Below, one piece after another: positions 14,053-31,721 of a stretch of 64,000 nt of DNA. The notes under the pieces were generated by a model. It made no database searches and was not told the DNA's origin. It was given only the letters and a program-made list of their open reading frames with translations. Position 1 is the first letter of the stretch, and every line of letters starts with the position of its first letter. The position numbers and the translations under genes were made by a program. The stretch is from a virus: the IMG/VR virus record IMGVR_UViG_3300040751_002535. One strand, given 5' to 3'.

Positions 14053-14055
14053 ACT

Positions 14056-14583: not shown

Positions 14584-14590
14584 CAGTCTA

Positions 14591-14617
14591 GGGGGAGTGA
14601 AATATCTCCCCCATTTT
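14591..14617 (+). terminator. Rho-independent terminator-like hairpin
   Basis: GGGGGAG-TGAAATAT-CTCCCCC-ATTTT. Confidence 0.65.
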
Positions 14618-14631
14618 ACTAGGAGATAAAA

Positions 14632-14931: not shown

Positions 14932-15467
14932 GCAAACTTAAAGAACTTACCTGGGCTAATCACCAGAAAGCAGAACGTACAGAACATGCCCGCAAACTGC
15001 TACACGGCATGACACCAGAAGAGTATCATAGATATTTGTACAATCAATATGTAATGTATGCTGTGCTGGAAAGCCAAGCAAAAACATATGGCGTATTAGA
15101 AGGCATTGAAGATATTGCAAGAGCAGATGCAATCCGTGCAGACGTTGAAGAACTAGAAACTGCACATGGTATTGAACGCAACGGAGACTTGCTGTGTCAA
15201 GTTGTTGCAGACTATACAGACTATTGTATGCACATGAAAGACCGAGAAGAGTTTCTAGCACACTTGTATGTACGTCACTTTGGTGATATGTATGGCGGCC
15301 AAATGATTAAAAAGCGTAATCCAGGCAGCGGCAAGATGTATGAGTTTAATAATGTAGAAGAACTAAAAACTACAGTACGTGCTATGCTTACAGACGACAT
15401 GGCAGATGAAGCAAACACATGTTTTGAGTTTGCAATGCAACTATTTGAGGAGTTAGACAGTGAGTGA
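14928..15467 (+). CDS. Heme oxygenase
   Basis: LKELTWANHQKAE proximal His; AHLYVRHFGDMYGGQMI distal helix. Confidence 0.9.
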   Translation: MSKLKELTWANHQKAERTEHARKLLHGMTPEEYHRYLYNQYVMYAVLESQAKTYGVLEGIEDIARADAIRADVEELETAHGIERNGDLLCQVVADYTDYCMHMKDREEFLAHLYVRHFGDMYGGQMIKKRNPGSGKMYEFNNVEELKTTVRAMLTDDMADEANTCFEFAMQLFEELDSE

Positions 15468-16146
15468 AGTTTGGGATACACTGATTAAAATACAAGATAG
15501 ATTGATCGAACGTTTTGATGCAACTGGTCAAGAATACAACGAAATAGGCATGGATAGATTTAATCAACCAGGTTGGATCAACCGTGTATGGACCAGTGAG
15601 AACTATCGTAGAGCCCACATTGACGTAGTTGATGCACGAGACAGCAAAGGTTTGTGGATGATGCATTGCTGTGTGTTTCCTCACTTGGACAATGACGGTC
15701 CTATCTTTGGATTAGATGTTATTGCAGGTAAAAACAAAATCACAGGTTACTTCCATGATTACTCTCCAACGTCTTTGGAGTATCATGAAATGATTGAAGC
15801 ATTCGGAGATGAAGTAGCAAAACTAGAATGGCGCAAGCCACGTGAATTACCAGAATGGGCAAAGGCTATATTTACTGAACATATGGTTGCAGCAGGTAAT
15901 GTAAACAGCACTGAAGAACTAGAACAACTTGTGGAACTAAGTTTTGACAGTATTGACAACTATTTAGAATACATTGGTTCCTACAACGGAACAGGTAAAG
16001 AAGAAGCAGGCAAAGCAGCACAAAATCGTTATGCACATTATCAAAAACAAAATCCACATACTCCTAAAACAATGACCAGTTTAGGACTTGACGAAGAGGA
16101 TGTAAGAGTATTCGTACAAGAATGTTTATTTCCTGATATCGAATAA
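15460..16146 (+). CDS. Ferredoxin-dependent bilin reductase (PcyA/PcyX-like)
   Basis: MMHCCVFP, PIFGLDV, RELPEWAKAIF and QKQNPHT motifs; coupled to heme oxygenase. Confidence 0.88.
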   Translation: MSEVWDTLIKIQDRLIERFDATGQEYNEIGMDRFNQPGWINRVWTSENYRRAHIDVVDARDSKGLWMMHCCVFPHLDNDGPIFGLDVIAGKNKITGYFHDYSPTSLEYHEMIEAFGDEVAKLEWRKPRELPEWAKAIFTEHMVAAGNVNSTEELEQLVELSFDSIDNYLEYIGSYNGTGKEEAGKAAQNRYAHYQKQNPHTPKTMTSLGLDEEDVRVFVQECLFPDIE

Positions 16147-16168
16147 ATACATTACTTAGGAGTTAAAA

Positions 16169-17239
16169 ATGCGTTATAAAGACCTTGTAGAATACGAAGA
16201 CTTAGGACAAGAAAAAGAACAGATTATATCAACTATTTCTGGACTGAGTGCAGACAATCAAGACGAAGCAAACTTGTTGGATAGAATTTGGAAAATCCTC
16301 AACAGTGGAACTATTAGTACAAACATTGATAACGCATTTGATATTCCTCTACAAGACGAAAACATGGGCGACAAAGAAAAACTATTAATTCGTCAAGACA
16401 TGACAAAGATCTTTAGCACCATTGAAAGCGATTATAAAACAATGGACACATTGCTCAAGCGTTTAGAGCAAGGCGGCGCAGTAGATATTGGTGCATTATC
16501 AAAACCACTAAACACGTTTAGCGCAGTGTTTGGTGACGAAGTTGGATCAGCAGCATTTAGAAAACTAGCAGCATATGGAGTTGGTAAAAAACAAAAAGGT
16601 CCAGGTGAATATGGATTGGCTTGCTTATCAAACAAAGTACGACTAGCAGCAGGCGAAGGTGACCTTGAGATTGACGGCATTGGCAAAGTAGAACTCAAAG
16701 CAGCAATGAGTTCAAGTGGTGGGCGTATTGGTTATGGCGGCGGATCACAAAAAGCCAAACGTGCAGTGCTAGAAAAGTATAAAGAAAAGCTACCAACTGT
16801 TATTGGTGCTATTGGTGCTAAAGGTGGCAGTTTAGGACTAGGTCCATTTATGCAAGCATTGAACACAGACTTGCCAACAAGCGAGCCTAACAATCAAAAG
16901 ATTAGAAAATCATTGATGCTGGATTTGTTGCAAATGGACATGGAAAACTATGCTGGTCCTATTGCAGACAAAGTTGCAACAACTGAAGATGCAAGTCAAG
17001 TTGAACTTACATATCTAGCACAAAACTTTGAATGGTACAAAAACAGAGACAACTTTGATGCACTATTGCTAATGAGTATTCCAAATCAAAAAACTGCAAT
17101 GCTTCGCAATGCAAATGATCTAGCAGCGTTTAGACAAGGTGGACATGCTGGCGGACTTGCTATTAGTATTATTCCTACACAAGCTGGCGCAGGTAGAGAA
17201 CAGTGGGCACAGCTTACACTTAATAAAGCAATGATATAA
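16169..17239 (+). CDS. Late protein with PD-(D/E)xK-like nuclease motif, possibly virion-packaged
   Basis: GPGE...GDLEIDGIGKVELK; N-terminal MRYKDLVE; TAAATA upstream. Confidence 0.55.
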   Translation: MRYKDLVEYEDLGQEKEQIISTISGLSADNQDEANLLDRIWKILNSGTISTNIDNAFDIPLQDENMGDKEKLLIRQDMTKIFSTIESDYKTMDTLLKRLEQGGAVDIGALSKPLNTFSAVFGDEVGSAAFRKLAAYGVGKKQKGPGEYGLACLSNKVRLAAGEGDLEIDGIGKVELKAAMSSSGGRIGYGGGSQKAKRAVLEKYKEKLPTVIGAIGAKGGSLGLGPFMQALNTDLPTSEPNNQKIRKSLMLDLLQMDMENYAGPIADKVATTEDASQVELTYLAQNFEWYKNRDNFDALLLMSIPNQKTAMLRNANDLAAFRQGGHAGGLAISIIPTQAGAGREQWAQLTLNKAMI

Positions 17240-17254
17240 CAGGTAAATATAAGT

Positions 17255-17728
17255 ATGCGCAATACTTTTATCATATCAATGAGTTGGTTGTTTATAAGTA
17301 GCTCAATAGTTTCAGCTGATTTAGTACATGAATTCAAATCGCCAGCATTTAGTGGGACTGGATACAGTGCCCATATGCTAAGTCAAGAACAGCTCACATT
17401 TAATCGACGTAAGGACATTGATGATAAGGCGCAGCGTGAAGCTGATCGTTTAGAGCGTGAGCTAGAAAACACAGTTCTCAACAAGTTTATACGTAATCTT
17501 GAGTCACGTATATATGCAACACTCTCTAAGCAAATGGTGGACAATATGTTTGCAGCATGTGGAGAAGAAGATCAACCAGCATGTGCTAACACTGGCACAA
17601 CTGAAGTTGAAGGTGCTACGATTACATGGACCAAAGATGAAACTGATGGTAGTATCACACTTGTTATAGACGGCCCAGATGGCTATACAGAGATTACTAT
17701 TCCAGGCGCTGGGGAGTTTAACTTTTGA
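17255..17728 (+). CDS. csgF: Curli assembly protein CsgF-like
   Basis: Signal peptide then DLVHEFKSPAFSG, and F..NLESRIYATLSKQ. Confidence 0.82.
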   Translation: MRNTFIISMSWLFISSSIVSADLVHEFKSPAFSGTGYSAHMLSQEQLTFNRRKDIDDKAQREADRLERELENTVLNKFIRNLESRIYATLSKQMVDNMFAACGEEDQPACANTGTTEVEGATITWTKDETDGSITLVIDGPDGYTEITIPGAGEFNF

Positions 17729-18510
17729 AGTATCTATCTTTCATAGCAGTATTATTCCTTGCTGGATGTGCAAGCATGGGTCAAGTTCCTAAAACGCTAC
17801 AACAACCAGCAAAACTACAATCCAATCCAATGGTAGAAGAACTAAATGATCTAAAGCCATTAAATGGTCCAGTGATGACAGTAGGATTATATAGTTTTAC
17901 TGACAAAACTGGGCAGCGTAAACCAGCAGACAATGTTGCTAACCTATCTAGTGCAGTAACACAAGGTGCAGAAGTTTGGGTAATAGATGCACTATTACAA
18001 GCAGGTGAAGGTACTTGGTTTGAAGTAGTAGAACGTTCGGGCATGGACAATATAATCCGTGAAAGACAGCTGATACGCAACACTAGAGAAAACTACGAAA
18101 AAGAAAATGCAACTCCTCTAGCACCAATGAAGTTTGCAGGCATACTTATCGAAGGTGGCATTGTAGGATATGATAGTAATGTGACCACAGGCGGCAATGG
18201 TGCTATGTATTTGGGCATCGGAACAGCAGCAGAGTATAGAGTTGACACAGTAACCGTAGCAATGCGTTTGGTCAGTGTTAGCACAGGTAGAGTGTTAGTA
18301 AGTGTAGCAGCAGAAAAATCAATAGCAAGTTATAGACAAGGTGCTAATGCATTTAAGTTCTTAGAGTTAGGCACAGAAGTTTTAGAGATTGAAACAGGAT
18401 ATAGTGTTAACGAACCAACCAACTATGCAGTTCGTGAAGCTATTGAAGCAGCAGTAATAGAATTAATCTATCAAGGTGCAGATCAAAACTTATGGCAATT
18501 CAAAGAATGA
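17725..18510 (+). CDS. csgG: Curli secretion channel lipoprotein CsgG-like
   Basis: Lipobox LAGC; FTDKTGQRKP, SAVTQGA, WFEVVER and EGGIVGYDSN motifs. Confidence 0.93.
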   Translation: MKYLSFIAVLFLAGCASMGQVPKTLQQPAKLQSNPMVEELNDLKPLNGPVMTVGLYSFTDKTGQRKPADNVANLSSAVTQGAEVWVIDALLQAGEGTWFEVVERSGMDNIIRERQLIRNTRENYEKENATPLAPMKFAGILIEGGIVGYDSNVTTGGNGAMYLGIGTAAEYRVDTVTVAMRLVSVSTGRVLVSVAAEKSIASYRQGANAFKFLELGTEVLEIETGYSVNEPTNYAVREAIEAAVIELIYQGADQNLWQFKE

Positions 18511-18785
18511 TTATAGCGTTTTATTTTTGCTAGTAATGTTTCTCGTTTAATACCCAATCGTCGAGCAGCATGTGTACGATTTCCGTTAGATTCAGTTAGT
18601 GCCTTTGAAATCTTATCTATTACAAAGTCATCTACCTCATTGTGCAAACAATATTCAGTTTGATCATTGTTCGTTTCAGCTCCTACTTCGCCCCAAAGTT
18701 CATCAAATGTTTCCCAAAAGGCCTGCTGTTCTTTGTGTGTTTGTTCTGCTTTTTTAAGTGCTTTCATGATTAATCTTAATTCCAT
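18483..18785 (-). CDS. Fis-family helix-turn-helix protein
   Basis: ALTESNGNRTHAARRLGIKRETLLAKIKRY (HTH_8 pattern). Confidence 0.8.
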   Translation of the reverse strand: MELRLIMKALKKAEQTHKEQQAFWETFDELWGEVGAETNNDQTEYCLHNEVDDFVIDKISKALTESNGNRTHAARRLGIKRETLLAKIKRYNHSLNCHKF

Positions 18786-18802
18786 TATGTATGCCTTTTA
18801 CT

Positions 18803-18860
18803 GTAAATATATTTACACTAAATATAAGTGTATTTATAGAAGTGAAGGTTCATATAAATA
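18803..18860. promoter_or_regulatory. Divergent late-promoter region with several TAAATA boxes and a palindrome
   Basis: Palindrome GTAAATATATTTAC and further TAAATA boxes between the fis-like and curlin genes. Confidence 0.5.
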
Positions 18861-18896
18861 CAGGTAGAAGATATTATTTTCTTCTGGAGGGCAGAT

Positions 18897-19655
18897 ATGA
18901 AAGCATATTCTATATTATTAGCTATGGCATTAAGCATTACGGTGTTTTCAGTACGAGCTAACGAGATATACATAACACAAATCGGTGACACACTGGATTT
19001 AGACATAACACAGGACGGTCTTGACAACGAGTTTGGTGACAGTACTACTGATGCTGGACTCTACGGAGATAGTATGGTTTTTAGTATTACACAAACTGGA
19101 GACTATAACACCATAGACGCTATTATTGCAGGCGACAGCTACACAGGAACTTGGCAGTTTACTGGCAACAGCAACAATGTCGACTTACTTTGTAATAGTT
19201 CTGCTACTACAGGCGGCGGCAACTGTGATAATGTACAACTTGATATCACTACAACAGGTGACTCAAATACGTTTGACTTCAAAATAGGTGAAACCAACGA
19301 TGCTGGTAATGCTACTATAACATTTACTGTTGATGGCGATGGCAACCTAGTTGATATGGACTTGGATGGTACTGATGCTAACATCACTGTCACAATAGAT
19401 AACAGTGCAAATACAGCTGTCGCAGGACAAACTATTACAAGTGCTACTGATTCAACACTAACTGCTAACTCACCGGGCAATATTATTGACTTATCCATAA
19501 GTGGCGATGGCGACAGCTTAGGACACACTGTAACACTAGATATCACCGGAGGAGCAAATATCTATACGATTACACAAAGTGGTATCTATGACAACTTAGT
19601 AGATATTACTTCAACTGGGGACGGAAACACAGTTGATATTACGCAATCCGACTAA
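18897..19655 (+). CDS. Curlin-repeat protein (CsgA/CsgB-like)
   Basis: Signal peptide; repeated xITQxGxxN / xTGDxN units. Confidence 0.8.
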   Translation: MKAYSILLAMALSITVFSVRANEIYITQIGDTLDLDITQDGLDNEFGDSTTDAGLYGDSMVFSITQTGDYNTIDAIIAGDSYTGTWQFTGNSNNVDLLCNSSATTGGGNCDNVQLDITTTGDSNTFDFKIGETNDAGNATITFTVDGDGNLVDMDLDGTDANITVTIDNSANTAVAGQTITSATDSTLTANSPGNIIDLSISGDGDSLGHTVTLDITGGANIYTITQSGIYDNLVDITSTGDGNTVDITQSD

Positions 19656-20763
19656 ACTTTTATGTATAATATTCTTTGCGCTGGCATTTGCAGATATGGC
19701 CAATGCAGTTCCTATTGGCGAGATTGCCGAATCTAAAGGCTCGAGTACAATCAAGCGAGACAAAGAAGCATACACAGGCGAAGTAGGGCTTGGATTACAA
19801 ATGAACGATAATGTTGTAACAGGCAAAGGCAGACTAAGATTAGACTTTATAGACGATACTAGAGTTGATGTAACAGAAAACTCACGTATGACTATTGATG
19901 AATTTATATATGACCCTGCTACACAAAAAGGTGCATTGTCAATGAAAGCAACACTAGGTGCAGTGAGATATGCTAGTGGACAAATAGCAAAAAATAGTAG
20001 ACAAAGAGTAAACATACGCACACCCAGTGCAACCATCAACGTGCGTGGCACAGACTTTATGATGATTGTAGACGAGATCGGCGGCAGTATGGTCACACTA
20101 TTGCCCAGTTGTGATATGAGTGGTGCTTGTGTAATAGGTGAGATTGAAGTAGAATCAGATGCTGGCACAGTTATAATGAATCAAGCATATCAAACTACCG
20201 TTGTAGCACATGCCGGAGCAACACCAGCTAGACCAGTAATACTAGATCTCCCAGAAGATATGCTGAACTCAATGTTGATTGTTCGTAAAGTAAGTCCGTA
20301 TACAGAGGAAATAGAAAAACAGTATCCAGTCACTAACTTACTAGATATTGACTTCTTAAAGTTTGATGAACTTGATAAAGATCCACTTATTGAAAGTATC
20401 AAAAATATATGGGTCACAGATTTAGACAACACCACATACTTAGATGAAGAGTTTTATGATGCAATGGCAAGACAGCTTGCTGAAATATTAGCACAATGGT
20501 TTGATGAACTTACTATACAAAATGCAGCATTTTTTGAAGAAAAGTTTTTTGGGTTAGACCCAGAAACAAATATTTTTTATGATGAAGAATATCCATACTA
20601 TCTGTTAAGCAGAGCAGAAGGTGACCAACACTTTTTTCGCCTAAGGTTGGGCCAGGGTTATAGTTATAGTGTGGATATGGCACAAGGAGGATTTTATACT
20701 TATGGATATTTGGTGGGCGTCGGCGGTGACAACACTATTACTATTAATCAACACGACTACTAG
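19633..20763 (+). CDS. FecR-domain secreted/periplasmic protein
   Basis: D.VVTG.GR.RL.FIDDT.V and IRTPSATINVRGTDF FecR signature. Confidence 0.85.
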   Translation: MILRNPTKLLCIIFFALAFADMANAVPIGEIAESKGSSTIKRDKEAYTGEVGLGLQMNDNVVTGKGRLRLDFIDDTRVDVTENSRMTIDEFIYDPATQKGALSMKATLGAVRYASGQIAKNSRQRVNIRTPSATINVRGTDFMMIVDEIGGSMVTLLPSCDMSGACVIGEIEVESDAGTVIMNQAYQTTVVAHAGATPARPVILDLPEDMLNSMLIVRKVSPYTEEIEKQYPVTNLLDIDFLKFDELDKDPLIESIKNIWVTDLDNTTYLDEEFYDAMARQLAEILAQWFDELTIQNAAFFEEKFFGLDPETNIFYDEEYPYYLLSRAEGDQHFFRLRLGQGYSYSVDMAQGGFYTYGYLVGVGGDNTITINQHDY

Positions 20764-21535
20764 TAATGCAAATGAAATTTATATGTACCAAGTTGGTGAC
20801 AACAATGCGTTAACCATCTTGCAAGAAGGCGACGATAATTATATCAGTGGAATACCTGGTTCGACTAAAGGTATTGAAGGTGATGGTAATACGGTTAATA
20901 TGGTACAAAAAGGTCAGTATCATGGCGTCCAAGGAATGTTAGACGGCGACAGCAATAACATGGATTTCTATCAAGGCGGCGGCGGCGATAGTGGAATGAT
21001 TACTGCCAGCGTTACTGGTGATAATAACGACTTGGTAATATGGCAGGGCAAACTCGAAGACGGAACCATAGACACAACAGAAGCAGGCGACCACACCTCA
21101 TATAGTGTTATTATGGGTGACAATAATAACATGGAAGTATACCAAACAGACCACGCCACTAACTGTTGTAATAGTGCCCACTCTGTAAGTAATGTTATTG
21201 TAGGTGATAACAATCACACAAAGACTATTCAACGTGGAAATGGCGGACACTATTTAGACACTTATACGTTTGGTAATGACAATTCTATCGATGTATTACA
21301 ACGAGGAAGCCAAGAATCGCACTATGGTGATATAGATTTGTATGGAGATGACCATACTGTTAATACTCAACAAAAAGACCAAGGTGCGCACAGTATAACA
21401 CTTGACCTAACAAACTCGGGCGGAGCATACAGTGTTAATACATTACAAGAAGGTGCCACAGATCAAACATACAGCCTTATAGGTTCTTGCACAAATCCAA
21501 ACGGTTGTGTTGTAAATGTTGAGCAGCATAATTAA
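20702..21535 (+). CDS. Second curlin-repeat protein
   Basis: NEIYMYQVGDNN, LQEGDDN and further QxG repeats; SD GGAGGA favours ATG 20702 over the track start 20669. Confidence 0.78.
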   Translation: MDIWWASAVTTLLLLINTTTSNANEIYMYQVGDNNALTILQEGDDNYISGIPGSTKGIEGDGNTVNMVQKGQYHGVQGMLDGDSNNMDFYQGGGGDSGMITASVTGDNNDLVIWQGKLEDGTIDTTEAGDHTSYSVIMGDNNNMEVYQTDHATNCCNSAHSVSNVIVGDNNHTKTIQRGNGGHYLDTYTFGNDNSIDVLQRGSQESHYGDIDLYGDDHTVNTQQKDQGAHSITLDLTNSGGAYSVNTLQEGATDQTYSLIGSCTNPNGCVVNVEQHN

Positions 21536-21547
21536 AGGAAAAGCACA

Positions 21548-21886
21548 ATGCTATTAGAAGCACTAACAATTAGTTTAGGTCTTAGTACCCATATCGGATT
21601 TGATGAAAAATACAATGCCTTTCATCCACACCTACGATATACACATGAAAACTTTATTACAGGTACATATTATAACAGCTTAGAAAATTTAAGCGTATAT
21701 GCAGGATCTAGACAAGAATATAATAATTTTGGGATTGAAACTGCAATTGTAACAGGCTACAACAACTTAATTACTCCTTATGTTAGAGCCACGTATGACT
21801 TAGGCAAAACAAGAATCTTTATAGCACCAGGCATAGAAACTAAGGATATCGGCATAGTTTTAGGAATAGAGATTATGCTTAAATAA
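21548..21886 (+). CDS. Small outer-membrane beta-barrel-like protein (PagP-like)
   Basis: H...YN.FHP...YYNS...SVYAG...TGY pattern. Confidence 0.45.
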   Translation: MLLEALTISLGLSTHIGFDEKYNAFHPHLRYTHENFITGTYYNSLENLSVYAGSRQEYNNFGIETAIVTGYNNLITPYVRATYDLGKTRIFIAPGIETKDIGIVLGIEIMLK

Positions 21887-21940
21887 ATATGTAGTCAACA
21901 GCGTGAGGGCGCAACTGGCACCAATACAAGAGGGTAAAAA

Positions 21941-23794
21941 ATGAAAAAAATAATAATAAGCAGCACCTTAGCTGTACTTTTATGTACAACTGCAATAGCA
22001 GATACAAGTAGTATGAACTCAAGTGTAACAGGAATGGGTATACTTGAAAACGATTACGTAAAAGCCGGCGTTAACGGCACAAGTGGAACATTCGGCTCAG
22101 GCGGAGGTACTCGTCCAGGACTACAGTTTGATAGTACAGGTACCGGAACATTTCCAGCAGATTCAGCGCAAGGCGACTACCTAACACCAGGTTCACCGTT
22201 TGATGGTTTTGCTATCAAGATCGATGGTACAAATAGTAAAAACAACAACAGTGGTTCAAACGCATGGACAGATGCTGATGGTTTAACAGATACCACAGAT
22301 GGATTTGTATGGACAGGCACAAATTCAGCACACAGTGGTTGGGAAATAGAAAACACTTATAGTTTAGGTGCTACAGCAGAACATGTTGAGATTGGCACAG
22401 ACATTACTGCTGGAAGTGATGCAACTGATGTATACTTCGGACGTTTTATTGATCCAGATGCTATGCCAGAAACAGGCGACACCAGTGCTACAGACAACGT
22501 GCTAGGTTATGGCGTCATTCCAGATAGTAATGTAGCATTTGCTGAAGCAACAGTTTCACGCTATGCGTTAGGATTGTATTCAACAGATAGTAATGTAGAT
22601 GCTGGTATTAGTAGTTGGAGTACAGAAGCAGATGCGTATACAGAAAATACTGTAGATGGTGATGGATCAAACACAAACACAGGAGACAATACTATTGGTC
22701 TTACTTGGCATTGGACAGGTGTTAGTACAGGTGACATATTAGAAGCAAACTATGCTTACATCTTTGGACCAAGTGCTTTTGATGCTGCGGATTCTGCTAT
22801 TACAGCAGGTGCCGGCGGCGGCGCTGATGTTAGTTCGTGGGGAACACTAGAAGATGTTGGTAGTGCTACAGACGCAGCAAGCGGTCCAACTGTGGTAGGA
22901 ACAGGCACAAGTAGTGTTACAAGTCACACAAGTACAACAGCAGATGGCGTACAAACTATTGCTAGAGAAAAAGCAACAGCAACTTGGGACATTTATAGTG
23001 ACGCTACATTAGGTACAGCAACTACAACAGTTGAAACACTAGATCCGTTTGTAGGACGTATGGATCAAGCAAGCCAAATGTTAACACTAGCTCCTCACAG
23101 AGGTGTTGGTATTGCAGAAGGATTTAGTGCAGGACGTATTAGTCACGACATGGGTAATGGGTATGATGCTGAGTCAAACGTATTTGGCCTAGGCCACACT
23201 ACTACAACTGAGGATCTTCTATCAGTTGGGTTAGGCATTAATCGTATAACAACTGACATAACTGGTTCTGATAGCACAGGAAATATGTCAACTACTGTAT
23301 TAAGTTTCGGTGCAAGCAAGCACATTGACGATCGTGATATGACAGTAAGTGGCACAGTAAATGCTTCGAATACAGACTTATCATACACTAGAACAATAGG
23401 CGACTTTGCCGCAGCAGGCTCAACTACATCAACTGACCGATGGGGTACACTTACAATAGAAAAGTCAACTGGTACAGTTCGTCCATTTGCTGGTTACACA
23501 TTAGGCAGAAATAGTCACGAAGCATTTACAGAAACAGGCGATGTTCAATCAGCATTACTAGATGCAGGTACTAGCGACACATATCGTTATGCTACAATTG
23601 GTGTTAATATTGATACAGGTAGTTTAAATGCAAGTTTTGCTAGAGACTTTGATGATGCACAAACAACCCGCATAGGACTAGGTTTAAATCGTGCTGTTAA
23701 TGAAACTATCGGTATTGAAGCAGGTGTTAACAGAGTTATAGCAGGTGATAATACAAGTACCACTCTGAACGCAGGACTTACTTGGAAGTTCTAA
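21941..23794 (+). CDS. Autotransporter-like outer-membrane protein
   Basis: Signal peptide, G/T/S/D-rich passenger region, C-terminal barrel strands ending LTWKF. Confidence 0.7.
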   Translation: MKKIIISSTLAVLLCTTAIADTSSMNSSVTGMGILENDYVKAGVNGTSGTFGSGGGTRPGLQFDSTGTGTFPADSAQGDYLTPGSPFDGFAIKIDGTNSKNNNSGSNAWTDADGLTDTTDGFVWTGTNSAHSGWEIENTYSLGATAEHVEIGTDITAGSDATDVYFGRFIDPDAMPETGDTSATDNVLGYGVIPDSNVAFAEATVSRYALGLYSTDSNVDAGISSWSTEADAYTENTVDGDGSNTNTGDNTIGLTWHWTGVSTGDILEANYAYIFGPSAFDAADSAITAGAGGGADVSSWGTLEDVGSATDAASGPTVVGTGTSSVTSHTSTTADGVQTIAREKATATWDIYSDATLGTATTTVETLDPFVGRMDQASQMLTLAPHRGVGIAEGFSAGRISHDMGNGYDAESNVFGLGHTTTTEDLLSVGLGINRITTDITGSDSTGNMSTTVLSFGASKHIDDRDMTVSGTVNASNTDLSYTRTIGDFAAAGSTTSTDRWGTLTIEKSTGTVRPFAGYTLGRNSHEAFTETGDVQSALLDAGTSDTYRYATIGVNIDTGSLNASFARDFDDAQTTRIGLGLNRAVNETIGIEAGVNRVIAGDNTSTTLNAGLTWKF

Positions 23795-23840
23795 AATAAA
23801 TACTGTTAGCAAGAGGGTAGATTGCTAGGAGGTAGGGCAA

Positions 23841-24323
23841 ATGATCGATCCATTCACAGCCGTTGCAGCAGCAACCACGGCATTTAATACCGTTAAGAAA
23901 TTCGTACATGCAGGACAAGATTTTGAAAACTGTATGGGACAAATGAGCAAGTGGTACACTAATGTATCTGATTTCCGTAAAGGTCAGCAGATGCAAAAGA
24001 ATCAACCAGTATTTAGAAAACTACTAGCCTCAGGCTCAGTCGAAGAAGAAGCACTCAATCTACTAATCCACGATAAGAAGGTTAGAGAAATGGAGAAAGA
24101 GTTACAGGAAATGCTTAACGCTCGATTTGGTTATAAAACCTGGGATGAACTTAAACAACTTCAGCGTAAGATCCGCGCAGACAGACAGAAGCAAATATAC
24201 GATGCTGCTGAACGCAGGCAATCGTTTATAAACACTGTTATGCTTTTTCTATTACTAGGAGCAATGATTTGCACAGTAGCAGGAATATTTTATTTTATAG
24301 CATTAGCAAAAGGAATGCTTTAA
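23841..24323 (+). CDS. Conserved phage protein with C-terminal TM
   Basis: MIDPFTAVAAATTAFN start; SD AGGAGGT. Confidence 0.65.
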   Translation: MIDPFTAVAAATTAFNTVKKFVHAGQDFENCMGQMSKWYTNVSDFRKGQQMQKNQPVFRKLLASGSVEEEALNLLIHDKKVREMEKELQEMLNARFGYKTWDELKQLQRKIRADRQKQIYDAAERRQSFINTVMLFLLLGAMICTVAGIFYFIALAKGML

Positions 24324-24545
24324 ATGATACATGCGTTTATACTAATCGTTCTTATAGCCGACAAACAAGAACCTAGTCCTATGTATTTTAGAAGTATTGA
24401 TGTGTGCCAATATTACGCAGCACGAATACCTAGACAGTATGGTAACTATGGAAACAAATACGAAGTACCTGCTGAACATAGAGTCACAGCATATTGTAAA
24501 CCTAAAAAAGTTAATCCGCAAACTACAGTAGTATATGATAGGTAA
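24324..24545 (+). CDS. Small protein with two Cys
   Basis: Hydrophobic N-terminus, F.S...C and AYCKP. Confidence 0.55.
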   Translation: MIHAFILIVLIADKQEPSPMYFRSIDVCQYYAARIPRQYGNYGNKYEVPAEHRVTAYCKPKKVNPQTTVVYDR

Positions 24546-24553
24546 ATATTGTT

Positions 24554-24880
24554 ATGAAATGGATAAGCGAATGGTTGTTCAAAGAACATATAGAAAATAT
24601 GGTGGAGGAAAAGTTTCAGGAGAAATTGCTTGAAACCTACCTTCGCCAGCGCCAACAAGAACACAAAGCAAGAATTGCCCGAGTCAGAGAAACCCTTGAT
24701 AATAAAACATCAAGGGTTTCGAAAGAAGAACAACCCAAACTACAATCCAGTAGTAGAGTACGAACGGGGAGTGAAGAATCCAAACTATCGACCTCGCCCG
24801 ATCAAGCCGCAATAGCAAAAGCAGCAAAAACAGCAGAGCTAGATGCAATGCGAGCAAAACTAATGGGAAAGAAAAAATGA
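24554..24880 (+). CDS. Hypothetical protein
   Basis: TAAATA-N5-ATG start. Confidence 0.55.
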   Translation: MKWISEWLFKEHIENMVEEKFQEKLLETYLRQRQQEHKARIARVRETLDNKTSRVSKEEQPKLQSSSRVRTGSEESKLSTSPDQAAIAKAAKTAELDAMRAKLMGKKK

Positions 24881-25320
24881 ACAACAAATTCAGTATAGGT
24901 GTTGTTGTAGCAATAGTATTACAAGTCAGTGGATTTGTATGGTGGATAGCACAGCAATCACAAACAATAGATACATTAAAAGCAGAAATGTCAGAACTTA
25001 CAGCAAGGACTGAAGTTGAGAAAGAAGTTACATTAATTAACGATGTAGCACAACTTAAAAAAGACATTCAAGAACTAAGTGATAAAACACTAGAAGCAGT
25101 ACTAGAAACAAACAAACGCATTGATGGCTTAGGTGCACATGTTGACAGTCAAGATATTCGTATTAATGATACCTTTAGAACACAAATGGAAGAGTTCGAA
25201 ACTACAGTACAAAACACTTTCAATGTAGTTGAAGGTTGGATTGACGAAATCGACGAAGATATTGCAGAACTTGACAAAAAGTTAAGTGACAGAATTAGAG
25301 ATATAAAAGAAGAAAAATAA
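24877..25320 (+). CDS. Membrane-anchored coiled-coil protein
   Basis: N-terminal TM followed by heptad repeats. Confidence 0.65.
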   Translation: MNNKFSIGVVVAIVLQVSGFVWWIAQQSQTIDTLKAEMSELTARTEVEKEVTLINDVAQLKKDIQELSDKTLEAVLETNKRIDGLGAHVDSQDIRINDTFRTQMEEFETTVQNTFNVVEGWIDEIDEDIAELDKKLSDRIRDIKEEK

Positions 25321-27365
25321 TGAGAAAAATACTATTTTCACCTTTATGGAGTATACTATTACTAGGCATACTTGCATGGGTGTATAGTATTAATCCGCCT
25401 TTCTTAGAAAGTATAAAACTAAGATATTTCGATACACTTATTGTCAATCAACAACCTGTTGAAAACAACATTTACACAGTAAACATCGATGAACCGAGTT
25501 TAGAGGCATACGGACAATGGCCGTGGCCGAGAGGTGATTATGCTGCCCTTATAGAGGATTTGTATGCCAGAGGCGCTGGACTTGTGGTGTTTAATGTGTT
25601 GATGTCGGAAGAAGACAGAAGCGGACAAGATGCAATACTAGCAGAAACAATGCAGCAACTACCTGTTATAGTTACAATGCTGGGTGCAGAGGAGAATAAA
25701 AATGAAGCGATCAATCCTGGTGCTACTATTGTTAATAGCGATTACATTGGGACCATTCCTAGTGTTCCTGGTATTATTGCTAATGTTCCTGATGTGGAAT
25801 TCTCAGCAGTAGGCAGTGGTATCACCAACAGTTGGGCAGAGATTGATGGCGTAACAAGACGCATACCTCTTGTGGTAGAGTCTGGCGGAACACTGTATCC
25901 AAATGTTACAATGGAAGTGTTACGTGTTATTGCAGGCGATCCCTCGTTTCAAATAAAACTATCTCCTATGGGCGTAGACAAACTACGCATACCACAGTTT
26001 GGTGTAATACAAACAAGCCCCACAGGCGAAGTATGGATAGACTGGAGTCAGCGTAGTAAAAGCGTGAGCGCAGTAGACTTGCCAGATGACTTTGAAGGTG
26101 CTATAGTGTTTGTAGGACCAACAGCAGCAGGGCTTACACAGCCTCTAGCAACAGCAGCAGGAAGTGTATTTCCACACGAAGTACAAGCAGCAATGCTAGG
26201 CACAGTGTTTAACGAATCTAATATATCAAGACAACCAGACGCAGAAGCGTGGGCAGAACTAGCAGCTCTAGTTATAGCCGGCTTACTGTTAATCATCCTC
26301 GCCCGTTGGACATACGTAGGCATAGCCTTCTTTGTGCTGTCCGTGGGTGGAGGTGTTTATTTTAGTTACTATATGTTTGCTACACAAAACCTGTTGATTG
26401 ATGGATTTATACCAGCAGCGTTTTTATTGTTGGTAGGTGTCAAGCGTTATGTAATCAAGTTTGTAGATGAGTTTTTACAAAAGAACGCAATCAAGAAACA
26501 GTTTGCTGGCTATGCTTCACCTACAGTGGTTAAACTACTACAGGAAAATCCTGACCTTATTAAGAAAGGTTCTAAAAAAGAAGTTTCGATTGTGTTCTCA
26601 GACCTGCGTGGCTTTACACCATTAGGTGAGAGCTTTGGCGATGATGTCGGCGGACTTACAAAAATAATGAATGGTTATATGGATGCTATTACTGAACCTG
26701 TGCTAGACGCAGACGGAATGATTATCAAGTATATAGGCGATGCAAGTATGCACATACACAATGCACCCATAGATGATCCTAACCACGCTAAGACAGCAGT
26801 ACAGTGTGGCTTAGACATGCTTAAAGCAGTGGAGAAGTTTAATGAAGAAGTTATTATACCTGATGGTCGTCCTGCTGTTGGTATGGGCGCTGGCATCAAC
26901 ACAGGGTTGGGATACCTTGGTGAGATGGGAAGTACTAAACGTCATTCATATGATGTCCTTGGAGACGCTGTAAGCACCGCCGCCAGAGTAGAAAGCAAGT
27001 GTAAAGAGTACGGATGCTTATTACTTGTAGGCGAAGCAACTTATGAAGCAACAAAGGATGACTTCTTCTATCTTAAAGTAGATGACTTACAAGTAAAAGG
27101 CAAGAGTGTTGGATTGAGCATTTATACAGTGCTCGATAATGTAAAAGATACATGGAAAATTACACAAAAACATCACAAAGATATGCATGGACTATATCAG
27201 ATGCAACTGTTTGATGAAGCCATTGAACAATGTAAAATAATACGTAGATCGTTTGATGGCCAAATGGAAGGCTATTACGATATGTGGATTGAACGCTGTG
27301 AGTATATGAAAACACAAGACCTACCACCGGATTGGAATGGAATTTTTGTTGCGACAAGTAAATAA
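25320..27365 (+). CDS. CHASE2-domain class III adenylate/guanylate cyclase
   Basis: GQWPWPR and DGVTRRIPL (CHASE2), three TMs, FSDLRGFT, KYIGDA, YDVLGDAVSTAARVE, VKGK. Confidence 0.93.
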   Translation: MRKILFSPLWSILLLGILAWVYSINPPFLESIKLRYFDTLIVNQQPVENNIYTVNIDEPSLEAYGQWPWPRGDYAALIEDLYARGAGLVVFNVLMSEEDRSGQDAILAETMQQLPVIVTMLGAEENKNEAINPGATIVNSDYIGTIPSVPGIIANVPDVEFSAVGSGITNSWAEIDGVTRRIPLVVESGGTLYPNVTMEVLRVIAGDPSFQIKLSPMGVDKLRIPQFGVIQTSPTGEVWIDWSQRSKSVSAVDLPDDFEGAIVFVGPTAAGLTQPLATAAGSVFPHEVQAAMLGTVFNESNISRQPDAEAWAELAALVIAGLLLIILARWTYVGIAFFVLSVGGGVYFSYYMFATQNLLIDGFIPAAFLLLVGVKRYVIKFVDEFLQKNAIKKQFAGYASPTVVKLLQENPDLIKKGSKKEVSIVFSDLRGFTPLGESFGDDVGGLTKIMNGYMDAITEPVLDADGMIIKYIGDASMHIHNAPIDDPNHAKTAVQCGLDMLKAVEKFNEEVIIPDGRPAVGMGAGINTGLGYLGEMGSTKRHSYDVLGDAVSTAARVESKCKEYGCLLLVGEATYEATKDDFFYLKVDDLQVKGKSVGLSIYTVLDNVKDTWKITQKHHKDMHGLYQMQLFDEAIEQCKIIRRSFDGQMEGYYDMWIERCEYMKTQDLPPDWNGIFVATSK

Positions 27366-27368
27366 CAT

Positions 27369-28019
27369 ATGTTCAACTATATAAAAAATCTTTTCGGCAG
27401 CAACACTGAATACAAAGGCCAGGACATTGAAGATATCAATGTAATATGGCTGCACGGCGCTAACCAAACCAGTTTGAGTTTTAAGTACCTACAAACAAAG
27501 ACACAGTTCTCAAAAGAGATTATGGTTAACTATTCAAGCATGGATAGATTTTATGACAACTTGGATATGATAACAGAGCAGTGTCAAAATAGAGGACCGC
27601 ACTTTGTTGTAGGACACAGCATGGGCGGGTTGTATGCACTACATCTTACCAAATATCTACGTGTAGTAGGTGGCGTTAGTATTAGCACACCGTTTAGAGG
27701 TAGTAGCACAGCAGACTGGGCAAAGTATGTTGTACCAAGTTATCCATTGTTTAGGGATATTGGACGTAAGAGCGATCCTATCAAAAAAGCACATGAGATA
27801 GAATTAGATATACCTTGGACACAAATAGTAAGTACAACAGGATCAGTGCCTTATCACAATGGCCCTAATGACGGTGTTGTTACACTTGCTTCAATGACAC
27901 ACAGAACAGACATGGAACTAGTAGAGGTAGCACATACACACTACGAAACTATGTGTTCTGATCAAGTTGCTGAGATTGTTGCTGAACGCTATTCTCGTGC
28001 TTTAACAACAGTGCGTTAA
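27369..28019 (+). CDS. Alpha/beta hydrolase (lipase/esterase)
   Basis: WLHG, GHSMGG nucleophile elbow, STPFRGS, NDGVV. Confidence 0.85.
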   Translation: MFNYIKNLFGSNTEYKGQDIEDINVIWLHGANQTSLSFKYLQTKTQFSKEIMVNYSSMDRFYDNLDMITEQCQNRGPHFVVGHSMGGLYALHLTKYLRVVGGVSISTPFRGSSTADWAKYVVPSYPLFRDIGRKSDPIKKAHEIELDIPWTQIVSTTGSVPYHNGPNDGVVTLASMTHRTDMELVEVAHTHYETMCSDQVAEIVAERYSRALTTVR

Positions 28020-28203
28020 CTTGGTCAGTTTTTATTAACCATCCACTTTCGTTTACTATAAACACATCGCCTGGTTTATACAACGGATGATCCTTATTAC
28101 CAGGATTTCCTTGCCTATCTAATCCCATTACTTCTCCAGGCCAATCGCCTTCTATACAAAAGTTATCACCGGCTTGCATTATATTATAATCCATCCACAT
28201 CAT
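27949..28203 (-). CDS. Hypothetical protein
   Basis: Coupled to the upstream minus-strand ORF. Confidence 0.5.
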   Translation of the reverse strand: MMWMDYNIMQAGDNFCIEGDWPGEVMGLDRQGNPGNKDHPLYKPGDVFIVNESGWLIKTDQVNALLLKHENSVQQQSQQLDQNT

Positions 28204-28472
28204 TGTACTTTCTCCACTGGTTTTACATGAGTATACTTTAATGCAAATAAAGTTGCGTGTCTTGAATCATCAATGTCTACATATATATCACAGCGGCAGT
28301 ATACATCTCCGGGCAAACTTGTACTGCTACTACGCAAAAGTTTCCATTCCCAGTTGTTTTCTTCTACTGTACGATAAAGATCGTCGCCAAGTTCACGCCT
28401 AATCCATATGTTCTCCATATCAGTATTGGCATGTGTCCACTTGTATTCGCATTGTCCTAAATAGTATCTCAT
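28200..28472 (-). CDS. Hypothetical protein
   Basis: C-terminal ATLFALKY motif. Confidence 0.55.
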   Translation of the reverse strand: MRYYLGQCEYKWTHANTDMENIWIRRELGDDLYRTVEENNWEWKLLRSSSTSLPGDVYCRCDIYVDIDDSRHATLFALKYTHVKPVEKVQ

Positions 28473-28480
28473 AAAAATAC

Positions 28481-28861
28481 TTAGTTATTGCGTGAAGTTC
28501 TTTTCTTTAGTTCTGGTTTATTTGGGTCTTCTTTCGGTGCAGGCTTGCCAGTTGAGTTAAATGTTTCGCTGCGGCTTTGATATTTTACAACTGCTTCGTC
28601 TAAGAACGCTTGTTGTTCTGGATTAAGCGCACCTCTATGCTCTAACACCATGCTCAACTTACTGTTAAGTCTAATCATGTCATTGTCTAGCATACGCACA
28701 CGGTCAACAAGACGTATAAGTGTACCCATGCTTTGTCCAATAACTGGATCAATAGTTTCTGTTACCCACTTCCAGATAAAGAAGATGAAATATCCCATGC
28801 CAAACGCAGCAATGACTGGAAAGCCAAAGTCTTTGATTGCAGTTGAAATATCAAACTCCAT
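28481..28861 (-). CDS. Small membrane protein, GFP-motif (YvrJ/holin-like)
   Basis: FGFPVIAA TM then coiled coil; paralogous to the gene at 29046. Confidence 0.65.
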   Translation of the reverse strand: MEFDISTAIKDFGFPVIAAFGMGYFIFFIWKWVTETIDPVIGQSMGTLIRLVDRVRMLDNDMIRLNSKLSMVLEHRGALNPEQQAFLDEAVVKYQSRSETFNSTGKPAPKEDPNKPELKKRTSRNN

Positions 28862-29077
28862 TTACTCTCCGAACATACCGATCAAGTCTGGCCCAAAACT
28901 ACTTGCCGCCCATCCTACAGCTAACATAGCAACTACTCCTAAAAACAGCCATTTCATTTTGAAATCATCAACTGACATTTTTATTGCTACTAGTTCATTT
29001 CCTAGTATACGCAACTGGATTTCCATTTTACCTTTGTCGTCTACATTAGTCTCTTCTGGCATCATCTTTTCCTTCAT
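28862..29077 (-). CDS. Small membrane protein
   Basis: LRILGNEL followed by a TM helix. Confidence 0.55.
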   Translation of the reverse strand: MKEKMMPEETNVDDKGKMEIQLRILGNELVAIKMSVDDFKMKWLFLGVVAMLAVGWAASSFGPDLIGMFGE

Positions 29078-29324
29078 TTGCTGCTATTCTATCAATGTTG
29101 GGCTTAACTCCAAGTGCATAACTTAACAGTGCATCTATCTTAACTAGGTCGTTGTTCATAGTTTGCACACGATTGTCAAGCGAGCCAATAATGCCGTTGA
29201 GTGTTTTTACACTGTCTTCAACACCGCTTAATATAAATCTAAGTGTTAAGAAAACAAAGTAGCCGGCAGCTAATGCTCCTGCAATAGGAAATCCTACTTC
29301 GCTTGCTAAAGTTAAAAAATCCAT
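29046..29324 (-). CDS. Small membrane protein, GFP-motif (YvrJ/holin-like)
   Basis: VGFPIAGA TM and LDNRVQTMNNDLVKI; ATG 29324 preferred over the track start 29339. Confidence 0.65.
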   Translation of the reverse strand: MDFLTLASEVGFPIAGALAAGYFVFLTLRFILSGVEDSVKTLNGIIGSLDNRVQTMNNDLVKIDALLSYALGVKPNIDRIAANEGKDDARRD

Positions 29325-29363
29325 AAAGTGCGCCCTCACGCTCTGCTATTACACATGTATTTA

Positions 29364-30287
29364 TTAAAAAGGACCCAAAGAGTTTGTCGGCATTATGAAA
29401 TCAACATCGAGTATTTTTAATATATCTTTAACGTCTTTTAGTGTTAACAACGGCTCAACACCGCTGTGAAATCCTGAAATTGGACAGGGCTTTACGCCGT
29501 CATTGTACTCTTTGATTATAGTATGTGCTATCTGCTTGGGCGTTTGTTTTTCCTTCAATAGCTGATGTCTCCATATAGTTGAATATGTGATCGGCTCATC
29601 TGGGTCAGTTGATCGTTGTCTTAATTTAAGTTCAAATAAATCATAAAGAATAAACTCAGCTGGACTTGTTTCGGGTAATAGTGCAGTTTCAGCAAACCAA
29701 CAGTAAAAGTTTATATCACTTTTAAAATATTTTACCAAACGTTTTGCAACATGGGTTTTAAATATATAGGGTGTGACATTTGGTCTTAGTTTTAGATGAT
29801 GTCCAGGATATATCAATCCTAGTCGTTCACAACTGAGCTTTGTCCATTCAGTTACACCTTTGAGGGTCCAGTTTCCGTGAGCATTGCAAGACGGCGTATC
29901 ATCAATGTTATAAGGACGAAAGAAAAAGTTTTTACTATCTAGTATTAAATATTCTTCTGTTTTTATAACAGAATGTCCTAATATTTTCAACATCTGTTGT
30001 CCGACCCAACCACCTAGTTCTAGTTCATAATCCAAGTGCTGAGGAATATTTTTAGGCCAGAACTTACTAGCAGGATATGTAACCACACTAAACTTGTAAA
30101 GCAAAGTCTCATTAATATTAGTGTTAAACCATTCTAACCATTCATTGTATTTTTTGTCACTTTCATTGTGAACAATCACTATACGACATGGCTCTAAAAA
30201 TGCACTAATACTACGGCACATCATTTCAAACTTCCATTTGTCGTGTTGGCATGTAACTACAAATAATGTTCTTTTCAAGGTTGACAT
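29364..30287 (-). CDS. Putative GT-A-fold glycosyltransferase-like protein
   Basis: GWVGQQMLK and YLILDSKNFF motifs. Confidence 0.55.
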   Translation of the reverse strand: MSTLKRTLFVVTCQHDKWKFEMMCRSISAFLEPCRIVIVHNESDKKYNEWLEWFNTNINETLLYKFSVVTYPASKFWPKNIPQHLDYELELGGWVGQQMLKILGHSVIKTEEYLILDSKNFFFRPYNIDDTPSCNAHGNWTLKGVTEWTKLSCERLGLIYPGHHLKLRPNVTPYIFKTHVAKRLVKYFKSDINFYCWFAETALLPETSPAEFILYDLFELKLRQRSTDPDEPITYSTIWRHQLLKEKQTPKQIAHTIIKEYNDGVKPCPISGFHSGVEPLLTLKDVKDILKILDVDFIMPTNSLGPF

Positions 30288-30309
30288 TCCTTTTAACTTG
30301 TTGTATATT
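30281..30309 (+). promoter_or_regulatory. Sigma70-like promoter
   Basis: TTGACA-N17-TATATT. Confidence 0.7.
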
Positions 30310-30339
30310 TAACTAAAGGCAATCAGGAGGAATCAAAGA

Positions 30340-31660: not shown

Positions 31661-31661
31661 G

Positions 31662-31690: not shown

Positions 31691-31721
31691 ATATATAAGT
31701 TAACAAACTTAGGGCAATACT

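Follow-up and report, generated by a model that had tools for sequence, protein, structure and literature searches.

Why would a bacteriophage carry a curli secretion system next to a membrane-bound nucleotide cyclase? The question is raised by a run of genes at 17255-28019 of a 64,000-nucleotide viral sequence, IMG/VR record IMGVR_UViG_3300040751_002535, the whole of which is called the window here. Its source is an uncultured, T4-like phage seen in estuary metagenomes, and the window also encodes ribonucleotide reductase, DNA ligase, heme oxygenase and bilin reductase. The open reading frames (ORFs) of the run, all on the plus strand, are csgF, csgG, cur1, fecR, cur2, b112, at617, p160, p73, p108, p147, cyclase and abh. 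The components, namely a type VIII secretion system (T8SS) with two curlins, a periplasmic FecR-domain protein, a CHASE2 cyclase with an ATP-type site and an autotransporter, are shown by homology and predicted fold. The reading preferred here, given a probability of about 0.55, is that two bacterial modules, the T8SS and a FecR/CHASE2 pair, have been fused in viruses into a coupled sensor and fibre; signalling through FecR to cyclic AMP (cAMP) is plausible. An earlier note made from the sequence of this DNA had proposed a trans-envelope sensing system. That interpretation is partly supported: the background and the gene linkage hold, and the mechanism, from fibre through FecR and CHASE2 to a cyclic nucleotide, is an inference.

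Two secretion genes head the run. The product of csgF (17255-17728, plus strand) is an accessory protein of the T8SS that matches PF10614 beyond the curated cut-off (E = 4e-11) and begins with a signal peptide; its mature N-terminus, DLVHEFKSPAFSG, resembles the CsgF plug peptide, and 38 viral ORFs are homologous to it. csgG (17725-18510, plus strand), whose start overlaps the csgF stop, encodes the outer-membrane curli secretion channel, a lipoprotein with the lipobox LAGC (PF03783, E = 1e-50, 172 bits). By tblastn it is 46-48% identical to the CsgG of Methylophilales phage Melnitz and of Pelagibacter phage HTVC008M. Signal-type hydrophobic segments are seen by hydropathy at the N-termini of CsgF, CsgG, both curlins, FecR and the at617 product. 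Absence of csgE, csgC and csgD, which had been noted before, is upheld: no Pfam domain of these proteins occurs among the ORFs of the region. CsgE (PF10627) was likewise not detected in five related phage records, in a search with a positive E. coli control, one record being 100% complete and the fragments proving little. CsgE and CsgC/H are accessory in some bacterial curli systems, and a T8SS is possible without them. The channel, CsgF and secreted curlin-repeat subunits by which a T8SS is recognized are all present by homology; formation of a fibre is a prediction.

The subunits are encoded by cur1 and cur2. cur1 (18897-19655, plus strand) specifies a secreted curlin-repeat protein of 252 aa with a signal peptide, the mature N-terminus NEIYITQIGD and recurring xIxQxGxxN units; its Curlin_rpt score is marginal (20.8 bits) and its CsgA/CsgB matches in NCBIfam are weak. 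cur2 (about 20702-21535, plus strand; the start codon is uncertain, GTG at 20669 or ATG at 20702) specifies a second such protein, also with a signal peptide (Curlin_rpt, E = 2.5e-6). The cur2 family profile matches a solved curlin-repeat protein, PDB 8c50, at E = 3e-8, and the cur1 and cur2 families align with each other at an hhalign probability of 99.6%, so the predicted curlin assignment of both is solid. cur2 evolves faster than cur1 (cur2 dN/dS, the ratio of nonsynonymous to synonymous rates, is 0.19-0.37), and its conserved C-terminus holds two Cys. In a 135-kb viral contig (L045, 1991-2765) cur1 is present as two overlapping ORFs of 143 aa each, owing to a frameshift or an assembly error; the cassette is otherwise intact.

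Between the curlin genes lies fecR (19633-20763, plus strand), which shares 23 nt with cur1 and about 60 nt with cur2. It has a TTG start and encodes a 376-aa periplasmic FecR-domain protein with a signal peptide (PF04773, E = 2e-8). A public protein record begins at Met22 and thereby loses the signal peptide; the TTG at 19633 restores one, as in all homologues (window 19633-19698). An AlphaFold2 model built with the family alignment consists of a confident beta domain at residues 29-200 (predicted local distance difference test, pLDDT, 85-90), an acidic, conserved linker at 217-270 that is of low confidence or unmodelled and has the motif LDIDFLxFDELDxD, a helix at 272-301, and a small C-terminal beta domain at 307-373 that ends GVGGxNxIxIxQ. 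Residues 56-214 of the model superpose on the cell-surface signalling domain of PupR (6ovk_R) with a Z of 15.1. Residues 25-119 superpose on 5ix9 (Z 7.0, 73/76 residues, root-mean-square deviation 2.2 A), a level that unrelated beta sandwiches can reach. That structure, from the Marinomonas RTX adhesin MpIBP, is of the N-terminal domain that anchors the adhesin in the periplasm, and it has served as template for the retention module of LapA (bioRxiv 10.1101/198937).

The likeness of the phage protein to the FecR proteins that neighbour bacterial cyclases does not extend beyond about residue 200, which leaves the tail specific to the phage. The tail ends in an invariant xIxIxQ strand, as do both curlins. 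When trimmed, the FecR C-terminus aligns end to end with the last 47 residues of cur1 (hhalign P 0.004, probability 8%; reversed control P 0.46); in the whole-protein comparison of the two families the signal peptides alone were aligned, and an Atlas search with residues 300-376 gave no usable match. A curlin-like tail of FecR is thus a lead. The protein has neither a cytoplasmic anti-sigma domain nor a transmembrane (TM) anchor, its signal peptide running directly into the FecR domain, and none of the ORFs in the region encodes a sigma factor or a TonB-dependent receptor or transducer domain. The reading of this FecR as an iron regulator, found in the literature, was considered and rejected because anti-sigma domain, sigma factor and transducer are all absent.

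The core is completed by cyclase (25320-27365, plus strand), which encodes a 681-aa protein with a CHASE2 domain (PF05226, E = 4e-38, residues 19-323) and a class III cyclase domain (PF00211 Guanylate_cyc, E = 2e-18). A first TM segment (4-22) is followed by the periplasmic CHASE2 domain (about 23-305), three TM segments (about 309-374), the cytoplasmic cyclase domain (416-596) and a conserved C-terminal extension of 80 aa. By hydropathy, CHASE2 is preceded by a single TM segment and followed by a hydrophobic stretch of ~65 residues, the usual topology of CHASE2 receptors. Alignment to solved class III cyclases places the catalytic motifs at FSD(428)LRGFT, K470-YIG-D474 and YD(545)VLGDAVSTAAR(556)VE. 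The metal-binding residues D428 and D474, the ATP-type substrate pair K470 and D545, and the transition-state residue R556 are invariant in the viral family. The same alignment bears out an observation of the earlier note, that Ser replaces the usual Asn (VSTAARVE): S552 occupies the position of the transition-state Asn, and a motif census finds Ser in 53/54 viral copies. The lone exception has Asn there, with Ser at the Asp position, and its motif is that of HTVC008M in alignment A1; the consensus of the wider family keeps Asn at the position equivalent to S552. In mammalian adenylyl cyclase the equivalent change, N1025S, lowers kcat by one to two orders of magnitude. The phage cyclase has a dN/dS of 0.10-0.14 against six relatives and its catalytic domain is the best conserved part, above CHASE2, a pattern that favours a functional enzyme, unusual at one residue, over one in decay. 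Its product is probably cAMP. NCBIfam returned nothing for the cyclase, at617, b112 or abh products.

Are these genes together by chance? Both csgG and cyclase were found by tblastn in HTVC008M and in the four Melnitz phages of OM43, where the order in the GenBank annotation is CsgF, CsgG, curlin, FecR (hypothetical in HTVC008M), curlin (or hypothetical) and cyclase; the earlier statement that csgF, csgG and curlin genes occur in marine myophages is thus seen in these records as well as in print. The whole region has no megablast match among GenBank phages, its relatives there being at the protein level. IMG/VR holds 60 cyclase-encoding loci at 48-98% identity. Both csgG and fecR accompany the cyclase in 32/32 viral loci that were anchored on the cyclase and extend 8 kb or more upstream, which answers the synteny check that the earlier note had called for; in reverse, the cyclase is present in 9/9 csgG-anchored loci with 10 kb downstream. 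Co-occurrence is therefore seen in every relative long enough, and the lack of it, which the earlier note would have taken as a refutation, is not what was found. The gene order is the same in all 34 loci that hold the six core genes. These loci include many near-duplicates, and the counts are not of independent events, but the range of identity is wide. fecR is translationally nested between two curlin genes in every relative, and all genes of the module are under purifying selection (dN/dS 0.06-0.44).

One relative, L003 (IMGVR_UViG_3300022921_001235), illustrates how the region changes. Compared with 13400-33000 of the window, its hemO, pcyX, p356, cyclase, abh and downstream genes encode proteins that are 96-100% identical. 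The block from csgF to at617 is only 52-70% identical, cur2 is undetected, and the breakpoints fall near the starts of csgF and cyclase. Because the flanks are so similar and the block is not, the surface block has been exchanged between otherwise near-identical phages.

The six-gene core, csgF-csgG-curlin-fecR-curlin-cyclase, is already known and published. Zaragoza-Solas et al. 2020 (PMC7029224) described a 'curli operon' of pelagimyophages, situated in a hypervariable region, and Buchholz et al. 2022 (PMC9004378) described curli genes in Melnitz, for which they suggested a role as a pore that times lysis. Wittmers et al. 2022 (PMC9599517) reported FecR and adenylate cyclase as conserved, virus-specific members of a viral T8SS cluster, so the linkage is not the fresh candidate system that it had at first been taken for. 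They found the cluster globally, at all 65 GOV2 stations, with metatranscriptome hits, and showed that the podovirus and myovirus versions have a common origin; FecR and cyclase are not in every viral curli region, many podoviruses having a histidine kinase instead. The papers on the viral T8SS leave the CHASE2 domain unnamed and read FecR as an iron regulator. CHASE2, autotransporter, PagP and hydrolase go unmentioned in Zaragoza-Solas 2020, Buchholz 2022 and Wittmers 2022, and the literature searched contains no description joining phage, CHASE2 and curli. The present analysis adds i) the reading of CHASE2 and FecR as a sensor pair, with its bacterial relatives; ii) the conserved Asn-to-Ser site; and iii) the extra outer-membrane cargo.

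The bacterial relatives separate the two modules. A HMMER search of 1.8 billion representatives recovered bacterial-length relatives of the cyclase, 30-36% identical and with the same 80-aa C-terminal extension. Cellular context was examined at the best 80 cyclase loci in species-representative genomes, which are mostly from Alphaproteobacteria, Bradyrhizobium, Methylobacterium, Rhodospirillales and roseobacters among them. A hidden Markov model (HMM) of the phage FecR proteins, iterated once, found a FecR-like ORF in the flanks of 28/80 loci, within 3 kb in 22. This agrees with the earlier note's statement that FecR proteins often neighbour CHASE2 cyclases in bacteria, as do the Burkholderia operon of a LysM-FecR protein and a CHASE2 kinase and the pair SMc02177/CyaD1 of S. 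meliloti. HMMs for CsgF, CsgG, both curlins, b112, at617 and abh found nothing in the flanks of the 80 loci. FecR and CHASE2 are a self-standing bacterial gene pair, and since the bacterial pairs lack csg genes, their union with a T8SS is virus-specific, in agreement with Wittmers et al.

Some of the bacterial FecR neighbours are very large. FecR-headed proteins of 1200-2000 aa with cadherin, Big_9 and VWA domains and RTX repeats, resembling adhesins of type I secretion systems (T1SS), are encoded beside a CHASE2 cyclase in Methylobacterium, Bradyrhizobium, Tardiphaga, Roseobacter and Roseovarius (L064 6018-9698, L067 5311-9861, L072 3784-9861, L068 2713-6633, L086 5400-9632 on the minus strand, L075 2-2263 on the minus strand, and L114 1307-6574). 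They look like T1SS adhesins whose N-terminal FecR domain would stay in the periplasm. No description of a FecR-headed adhesin paired with a CHASE2 cyclase was found in the literature searched. The pairing suggests a recurring arrangement, in which a CHASE2 sensor stands next to a surface fibre whose FecR-type foot is periplasmic.

When the cassette might be expressed is indicated by promoter-like boxes. The octamer TATAAATA is the established T4 late promoter consensus. The earlier note had placed TAAATA sequences upstream of the genes, and indeed all 10 plus-strand sites in 16000-28100 are intergenic or at gene junctions. Eight of the 10 are followed by a start codon within about 60 nt, a zone that makes up ~8% of the region; the genes are p356, csgF, cur1, at617 (two sites), p160, p108 and abh, and the distance is 11 nt for csgF, about 57-61 nt for at617 and 10 nt for abh. 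A complete T4-late-type box, TATAAATA, is found at 18853-18860 on the plus strand, 37 nt before cur1, and is paired divergently with another at 18831-18838 on the minus strand, which belongs to the antisense gene described below. The full octamer is not enriched in the whole window (4 against 6.6 expected), nor in the region are sigma-70 promoters (45 against 44.6) or intrinsic terminators (11 against 8.7). The position of TAAATA relative to gene starts is the sole informative part of the promoter evidence. Since the box is an established T4 late promoter, late expression from T4-late-type (T)ATAAATA boxes is inferred. In metatranscriptome libraries of three studies, csgF, fecR, at617 and cyclase are covered by near-identical contigs, 300-750 nt long and differing at few positions. 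Contigs of this kind span most of the region, and no strand, ends or level can be read from them. They fit transcription and the hits of Wittmers et al., DNA carry-over also being possible.

Around the core the window carries genes that vary between relatives, and these were tallied over 38 related cassettes. Every gene listed by the earlier note is present on the plus strand where it had been placed; the list had overlooked a minus-strand gene at 18483-18785. This gene, antisense in the gap between csgG and cur1, encodes a Fis/NtrC-type DNA-binding protein of 100 aa with a helix-turn-helix (HTH) domain (HTH_8, PF02954, E = 1.8e-10; C-terminal matches to Fis and NtrC in NCBIfam). It is found in 17/38 cassettes, always in the opposite orientation, either in the csgG-cur1 gap or upstream of csgF depending on the lineage, and could be a cassette-associated regulator.

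Two of the variable genes appear to concern the outer membrane. b112 (21548-21886, plus strand) encodes a 112-aa PagP-like protein that matches the PagP-annotated phrog_3600 over its C-terminal third (E = 1.2e-10) and has a weak PagP lead in Atlas (0.91, 154 shared features). H15, H26-P27-H28 and R30 are invariant. It has no recognisable signal peptide and no match to Pfam PF07017, and a search of PDB sequences with its family profile, up to an E of 10, gave no match. It occurs in 20/38 cassettes, upstream of csgF in two loci. at617 (21941-23794, plus strand; 18/38 cassettes) encodes a 617-aa outer-membrane protein with a signal peptide. Its AlphaFold2 model has a C-terminal 12-strand barrel at 318-615 (pLDDT about 88) ending in WKF, for which Foldseek returned NalP (E = 4.5e-8, TM-score 0.66) and the translocators of EstA, Hbp, EspP and BrkA. 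The putative passenger, about residues 21-315, is rich in Thr, Ser, Gly and Asp and poorly modelled, and the sequence has no match in Pfam (including the Autotransporter beta-domain), NCBIfam or PHROG. Its assignment as a type Va autotransporter-like protein is supported by predicted fold only, and coincides with the name autotransporter-like given to it at first reading.

Four small ORFs, p160, p73, p108 and p147, occupy 23841-25320 on the plus strand and were classed by hydropathy and PHROG as membrane or coiled-coil proteins. They had been called small membrane proteins, a description that suits two of the four, each with one predicted TM segment: p160, where it is C-terminal (13/38 cassettes), and p147 (24877-25320), where it is N-terminal and accompanied by a coiled coil. 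p108 is charged and p73 has only a short hydrophobic N-terminus. p147 overlaps the cyclase start, is a weak match to Rz-like i-spanins (phrog_13, E = 7e-4) and has no detected homologues in related loci. Metatranscriptome contigs of three runs join 23805 straight to 24553 and skip p160 and p73, which are therefore missing in some relatives as an insertion/deletion polymorphism. Downstream of the cyclase, abh (27369-28019, plus strand; 14/38 cassettes) encodes a cytoplasmic alpha/beta hydrolase of 216 aa with the nucleophile elbow GHSMGG (Abhydrolase_6, E = 7e-7) and no significant match in PDB or NCBIfam. Its earlier label, lipase, is not established and was rejected, the elbow alone being lipase-like and the best PDB lipase match having an E of about 0.2; this label and that of small barrel for b112 were too specific.

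The autotransporter, the PagP-like protein, the small membrane proteins, the hydrolase and the Fis-type HTH protein are best explained as lineage-specific add-ons to a surface-remodelling island. Homologues of m84 and m126 (phrog_18771) lie on the minus strand just past the cassette, at 27949-28861. In many relatives (L035-L048, and for m126 also Melnitz and HTVC008M) they are directly upstream of csgF on the same strand. Since these genes switch sides between relatives, the cassette borders have been rearranged around the same neighbours.

How might the core work? CsgG would form the outer-membrane channel and CsgF its cap, and the products of cur1 and cur2 would be Sec-exported subunits, together placing a curli-like beta-solenoid fibre on the infected cell, with the cassette genes expressed late. 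Periplasmic FecR would pair with the inner-membrane CHASE2 receptor as partner or co-sensor, and the pair would turn a periplasmic or envelope cue into cAMP by means of the ATP-type Lys/Asp pair. The cue may be the state of the phage's own fibre or secretion system, because fecR is nested between curlin genes everywhere and its tail resembles a curlin C-terminus. The cAMP would act on host receptors, as no phage cyclic nucleotide-binding domain was found in the five related records. Superinfection control, aggregation and the timing of late events are candidate benefits to the phage.

Several observations weigh against this coupled sensor and fibre. Interaction of FecR with CHASE2 has been demonstrated in no organism, and the FecR-domain protein of S. 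meliloti, SMc02177, is dispensable for perception of the plant signal. L003 swaps its csgF-to-at617 block while keeping a 96% identical cyclase, and podovirus versions are often without a cyclase (Wittmers et al. 2022, PMC9599517), so the two modules are separable. Melnitz-infected cells showed no clumping (Buchholz et al. 2022, PMC9004378). The curlin-like tail of FecR is without statistical support at its hhalign probability of 8%, and with Ser for the transition-state Asn the activity of the cyclase may be low or altered. No cNMP_binding domain (PF00027) occurs in the five related phage records, of which one is 100% complete, fragments proving little. The contigs from RNA libraries, too, are no proof of transcription.

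If the modules are separable, they may simply have independent functions in a shared variable island, the T8SS making fibres or a pore and FecR/CHASE2 serving as a host-takeover pair that raises cAMP on a cue unrelated to curli. The bacterial FecR/CHASE2 loci, 28 of the 80 examined, never hold csg genes, and viral curli regions sometimes lack FecR and cyclase, often with a histidine kinase in podoviruses (PMC9599517). L003 keeps its cyclase beside a csgF-to-fecR block of 52-70% identity, and the region is hypervariable according to Zaragoza-Solas et al. (PMC7029224). This explanation is nevertheless judged unlikely. The order is invariant in 34/34 loci with fecR always nested in overlapping frames, and it holds over 48-96% cyclase identity in SAR11 phages, OM43 phages and the phage of the window; chance co-location in a variable island is therefore disfavoured.

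A very unlikely alternative dispenses with the fibre: CsgG and CsgF would be a repurposed pore, either a pinholin or secretin for lysis timing or an import channel, and the cyclase a timer. Buchholz et al. (PMC9004378) proposed such a role for Melnitz and observed no clumping; absence of CsgE and CsgC, the late type of the promoter boxes and the weak likeness of p147 to an Rz-like spanin (E = 7e-4) would all suit it. It assumed, however, that csgA and csgB are missing, whereas two curlin-repeat genes with signal peptides are conserved under purifying selection in all relatives, and an outer-membrane pore alone leaves the inner membrane polarised. The remaining alternative, that the cyclase is dead or has been repurposed as a pseudo-enzyme receptor or scaffold which makes no cyclic nucleotide signal, has an equally slim chance. 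The near-universal Ser at the site of the transition-state-stabilising Asn and the kcat loss of mammalian N1025S speak for it. On the other side, neither the two metal Asp, nor the Lys/Asp substrate pair, nor the Arg varies, conservation is higher in the catalytic domain than in CHASE2, dN/dS is about 0.1, and HTVC008M retains the Asn. Long retention of this set of catalytic residues disfavours a dead enzyme.

The coupled sensor and fibre can also be taken further, at a cost in probability: it is quite doubtful that all parts hold jointly, with FecR as a trans-envelope tether that makes the phage curli fibre itself a sensor. The N-terminal FecR-fold domain may remain in the periplasm and contact CHASE2, the acidic linker 217-270 may thread the CsgG channel, and the C-terminal beta tail GVGGxNxIxIxQ may dock on, or nucleate, the cur1/cur2 fibre outside. 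In the infected cell cAMP may then rise when the fibre is loaded, when it touches, for example, a superinfecting phage or another cell, or when secretion jams. If true, the same logic would also explain the FecR-headed cadherin and RTX giants next to CHASE2 cyclases in Alphaproteobacteria, and adhesin-coupled cAMP signalling would be a general, undescribed principle.

Comparison with named systems shows what is shared and what is particular. The closest is the viral T8SS cluster of HTVC008M (KC465899, 7562-13807) and Melnitz (MZ577097, 50731-56876), which has the same six genes in the same order at 33-53% protein identity, in the variable region of a T4-like myophage as here; CsgE, CsgC and CsgD are absent from this cassette and that of the known phages alike. 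The window adds at617, the PagP-like b112 and four small ORFs between cur2 and cyclase, abh after the cyclase, and the antisense Fis-type HTH gene, additions that the papers on those phages do not mention. Common to the phage cassette and the curli system of E. coli and Salmonella (csgBAC-csgDEFG) are CsgG as a lipoprotein channel, CsgF, and curlin-repeat subunits that depend on Sec. The phage version differs in lacking CsgE, CsgC/H and CsgD, in its curlins, which are 250-280 aa long, have irregular repeats and lack a Gly-rich N22 leader, and in its apparent expression from late-type promoters.

On the sensory side, an experimental precedent is the S. meliloti pathway from NsrA through CyaK/CyaD1/CyaD2 to Clr (Tian 2012; Garnerone 2018; PMC7529298; PMC13001267), in which an outer-membrane protein acts through CHASE2 cyclases to cAMP. 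Inner-membrane CHASE2 adenylate cyclases of the same family are found there and in the phage; an outer-membrane beta-barrel protein encoded beside the cyclase is needed for perception, and the FecR-domain gene smc02177 is in the cyaD1 locus. That pathway differs in having no T8SS or curlins, in its signal, which is a plant or ribosomal protein, and in its receptor, the host's Clr. A biofilm-regulating operon of Burkholderia contaminans (PMC5192318) pairs a LysM-FecR protein (COG4254) with a CHASE2 histidine kinase, the secreted FecR-domain protein being directly upstream of the CHASE2 membrane receptor; adjacency of this sort was also met at the 28/80 cyclase loci. Instead of a cyclase, its output is a histidine kinase with a response regulator, and its FecR has a LysM domain where the phage protein has its own linker, helix and beta tail. 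With FecIRA/PupR signalling the phage shares the periplasmic FecR fold, that of the C-terminal cell-surface signalling domain of PupR (Z 15.1), but its FecR is without anti-sigma domain or TM anchor and the region without extracytoplasmic function (ECF) sigma factor or TonB-dependent transducer. The retention module of LapA and MpIBP is comparable in the flexible segment that follows the folded domain in both phage FecR and LapA. The phage has no T1SS and no LapG/LapD, and the likeness is about possible working, not family membership.

The cassette is carried by very abundant ocean phages, and infected cells would gain a surface structure that their hosts do not encode. What this window itself adds is a smaller gain, namely that the cassette takes extra outer-membrane cargo in the form of an autotransporter and a PagP-like protein. 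The exchange of the block between near-identical phages is the pattern expected of surface genes under diversifying selection. If the FecR/CHASE2 cyclase does read the envelope, these phages would have built outside-in signalling of their own, in which the host surface is monitored late in infection and a second messenger is the answer. It would also give a first testable hypothesis of a ligand or partner for CHASE2 domains and for the widespread FecR/CHASE2 pairs of bacteria.

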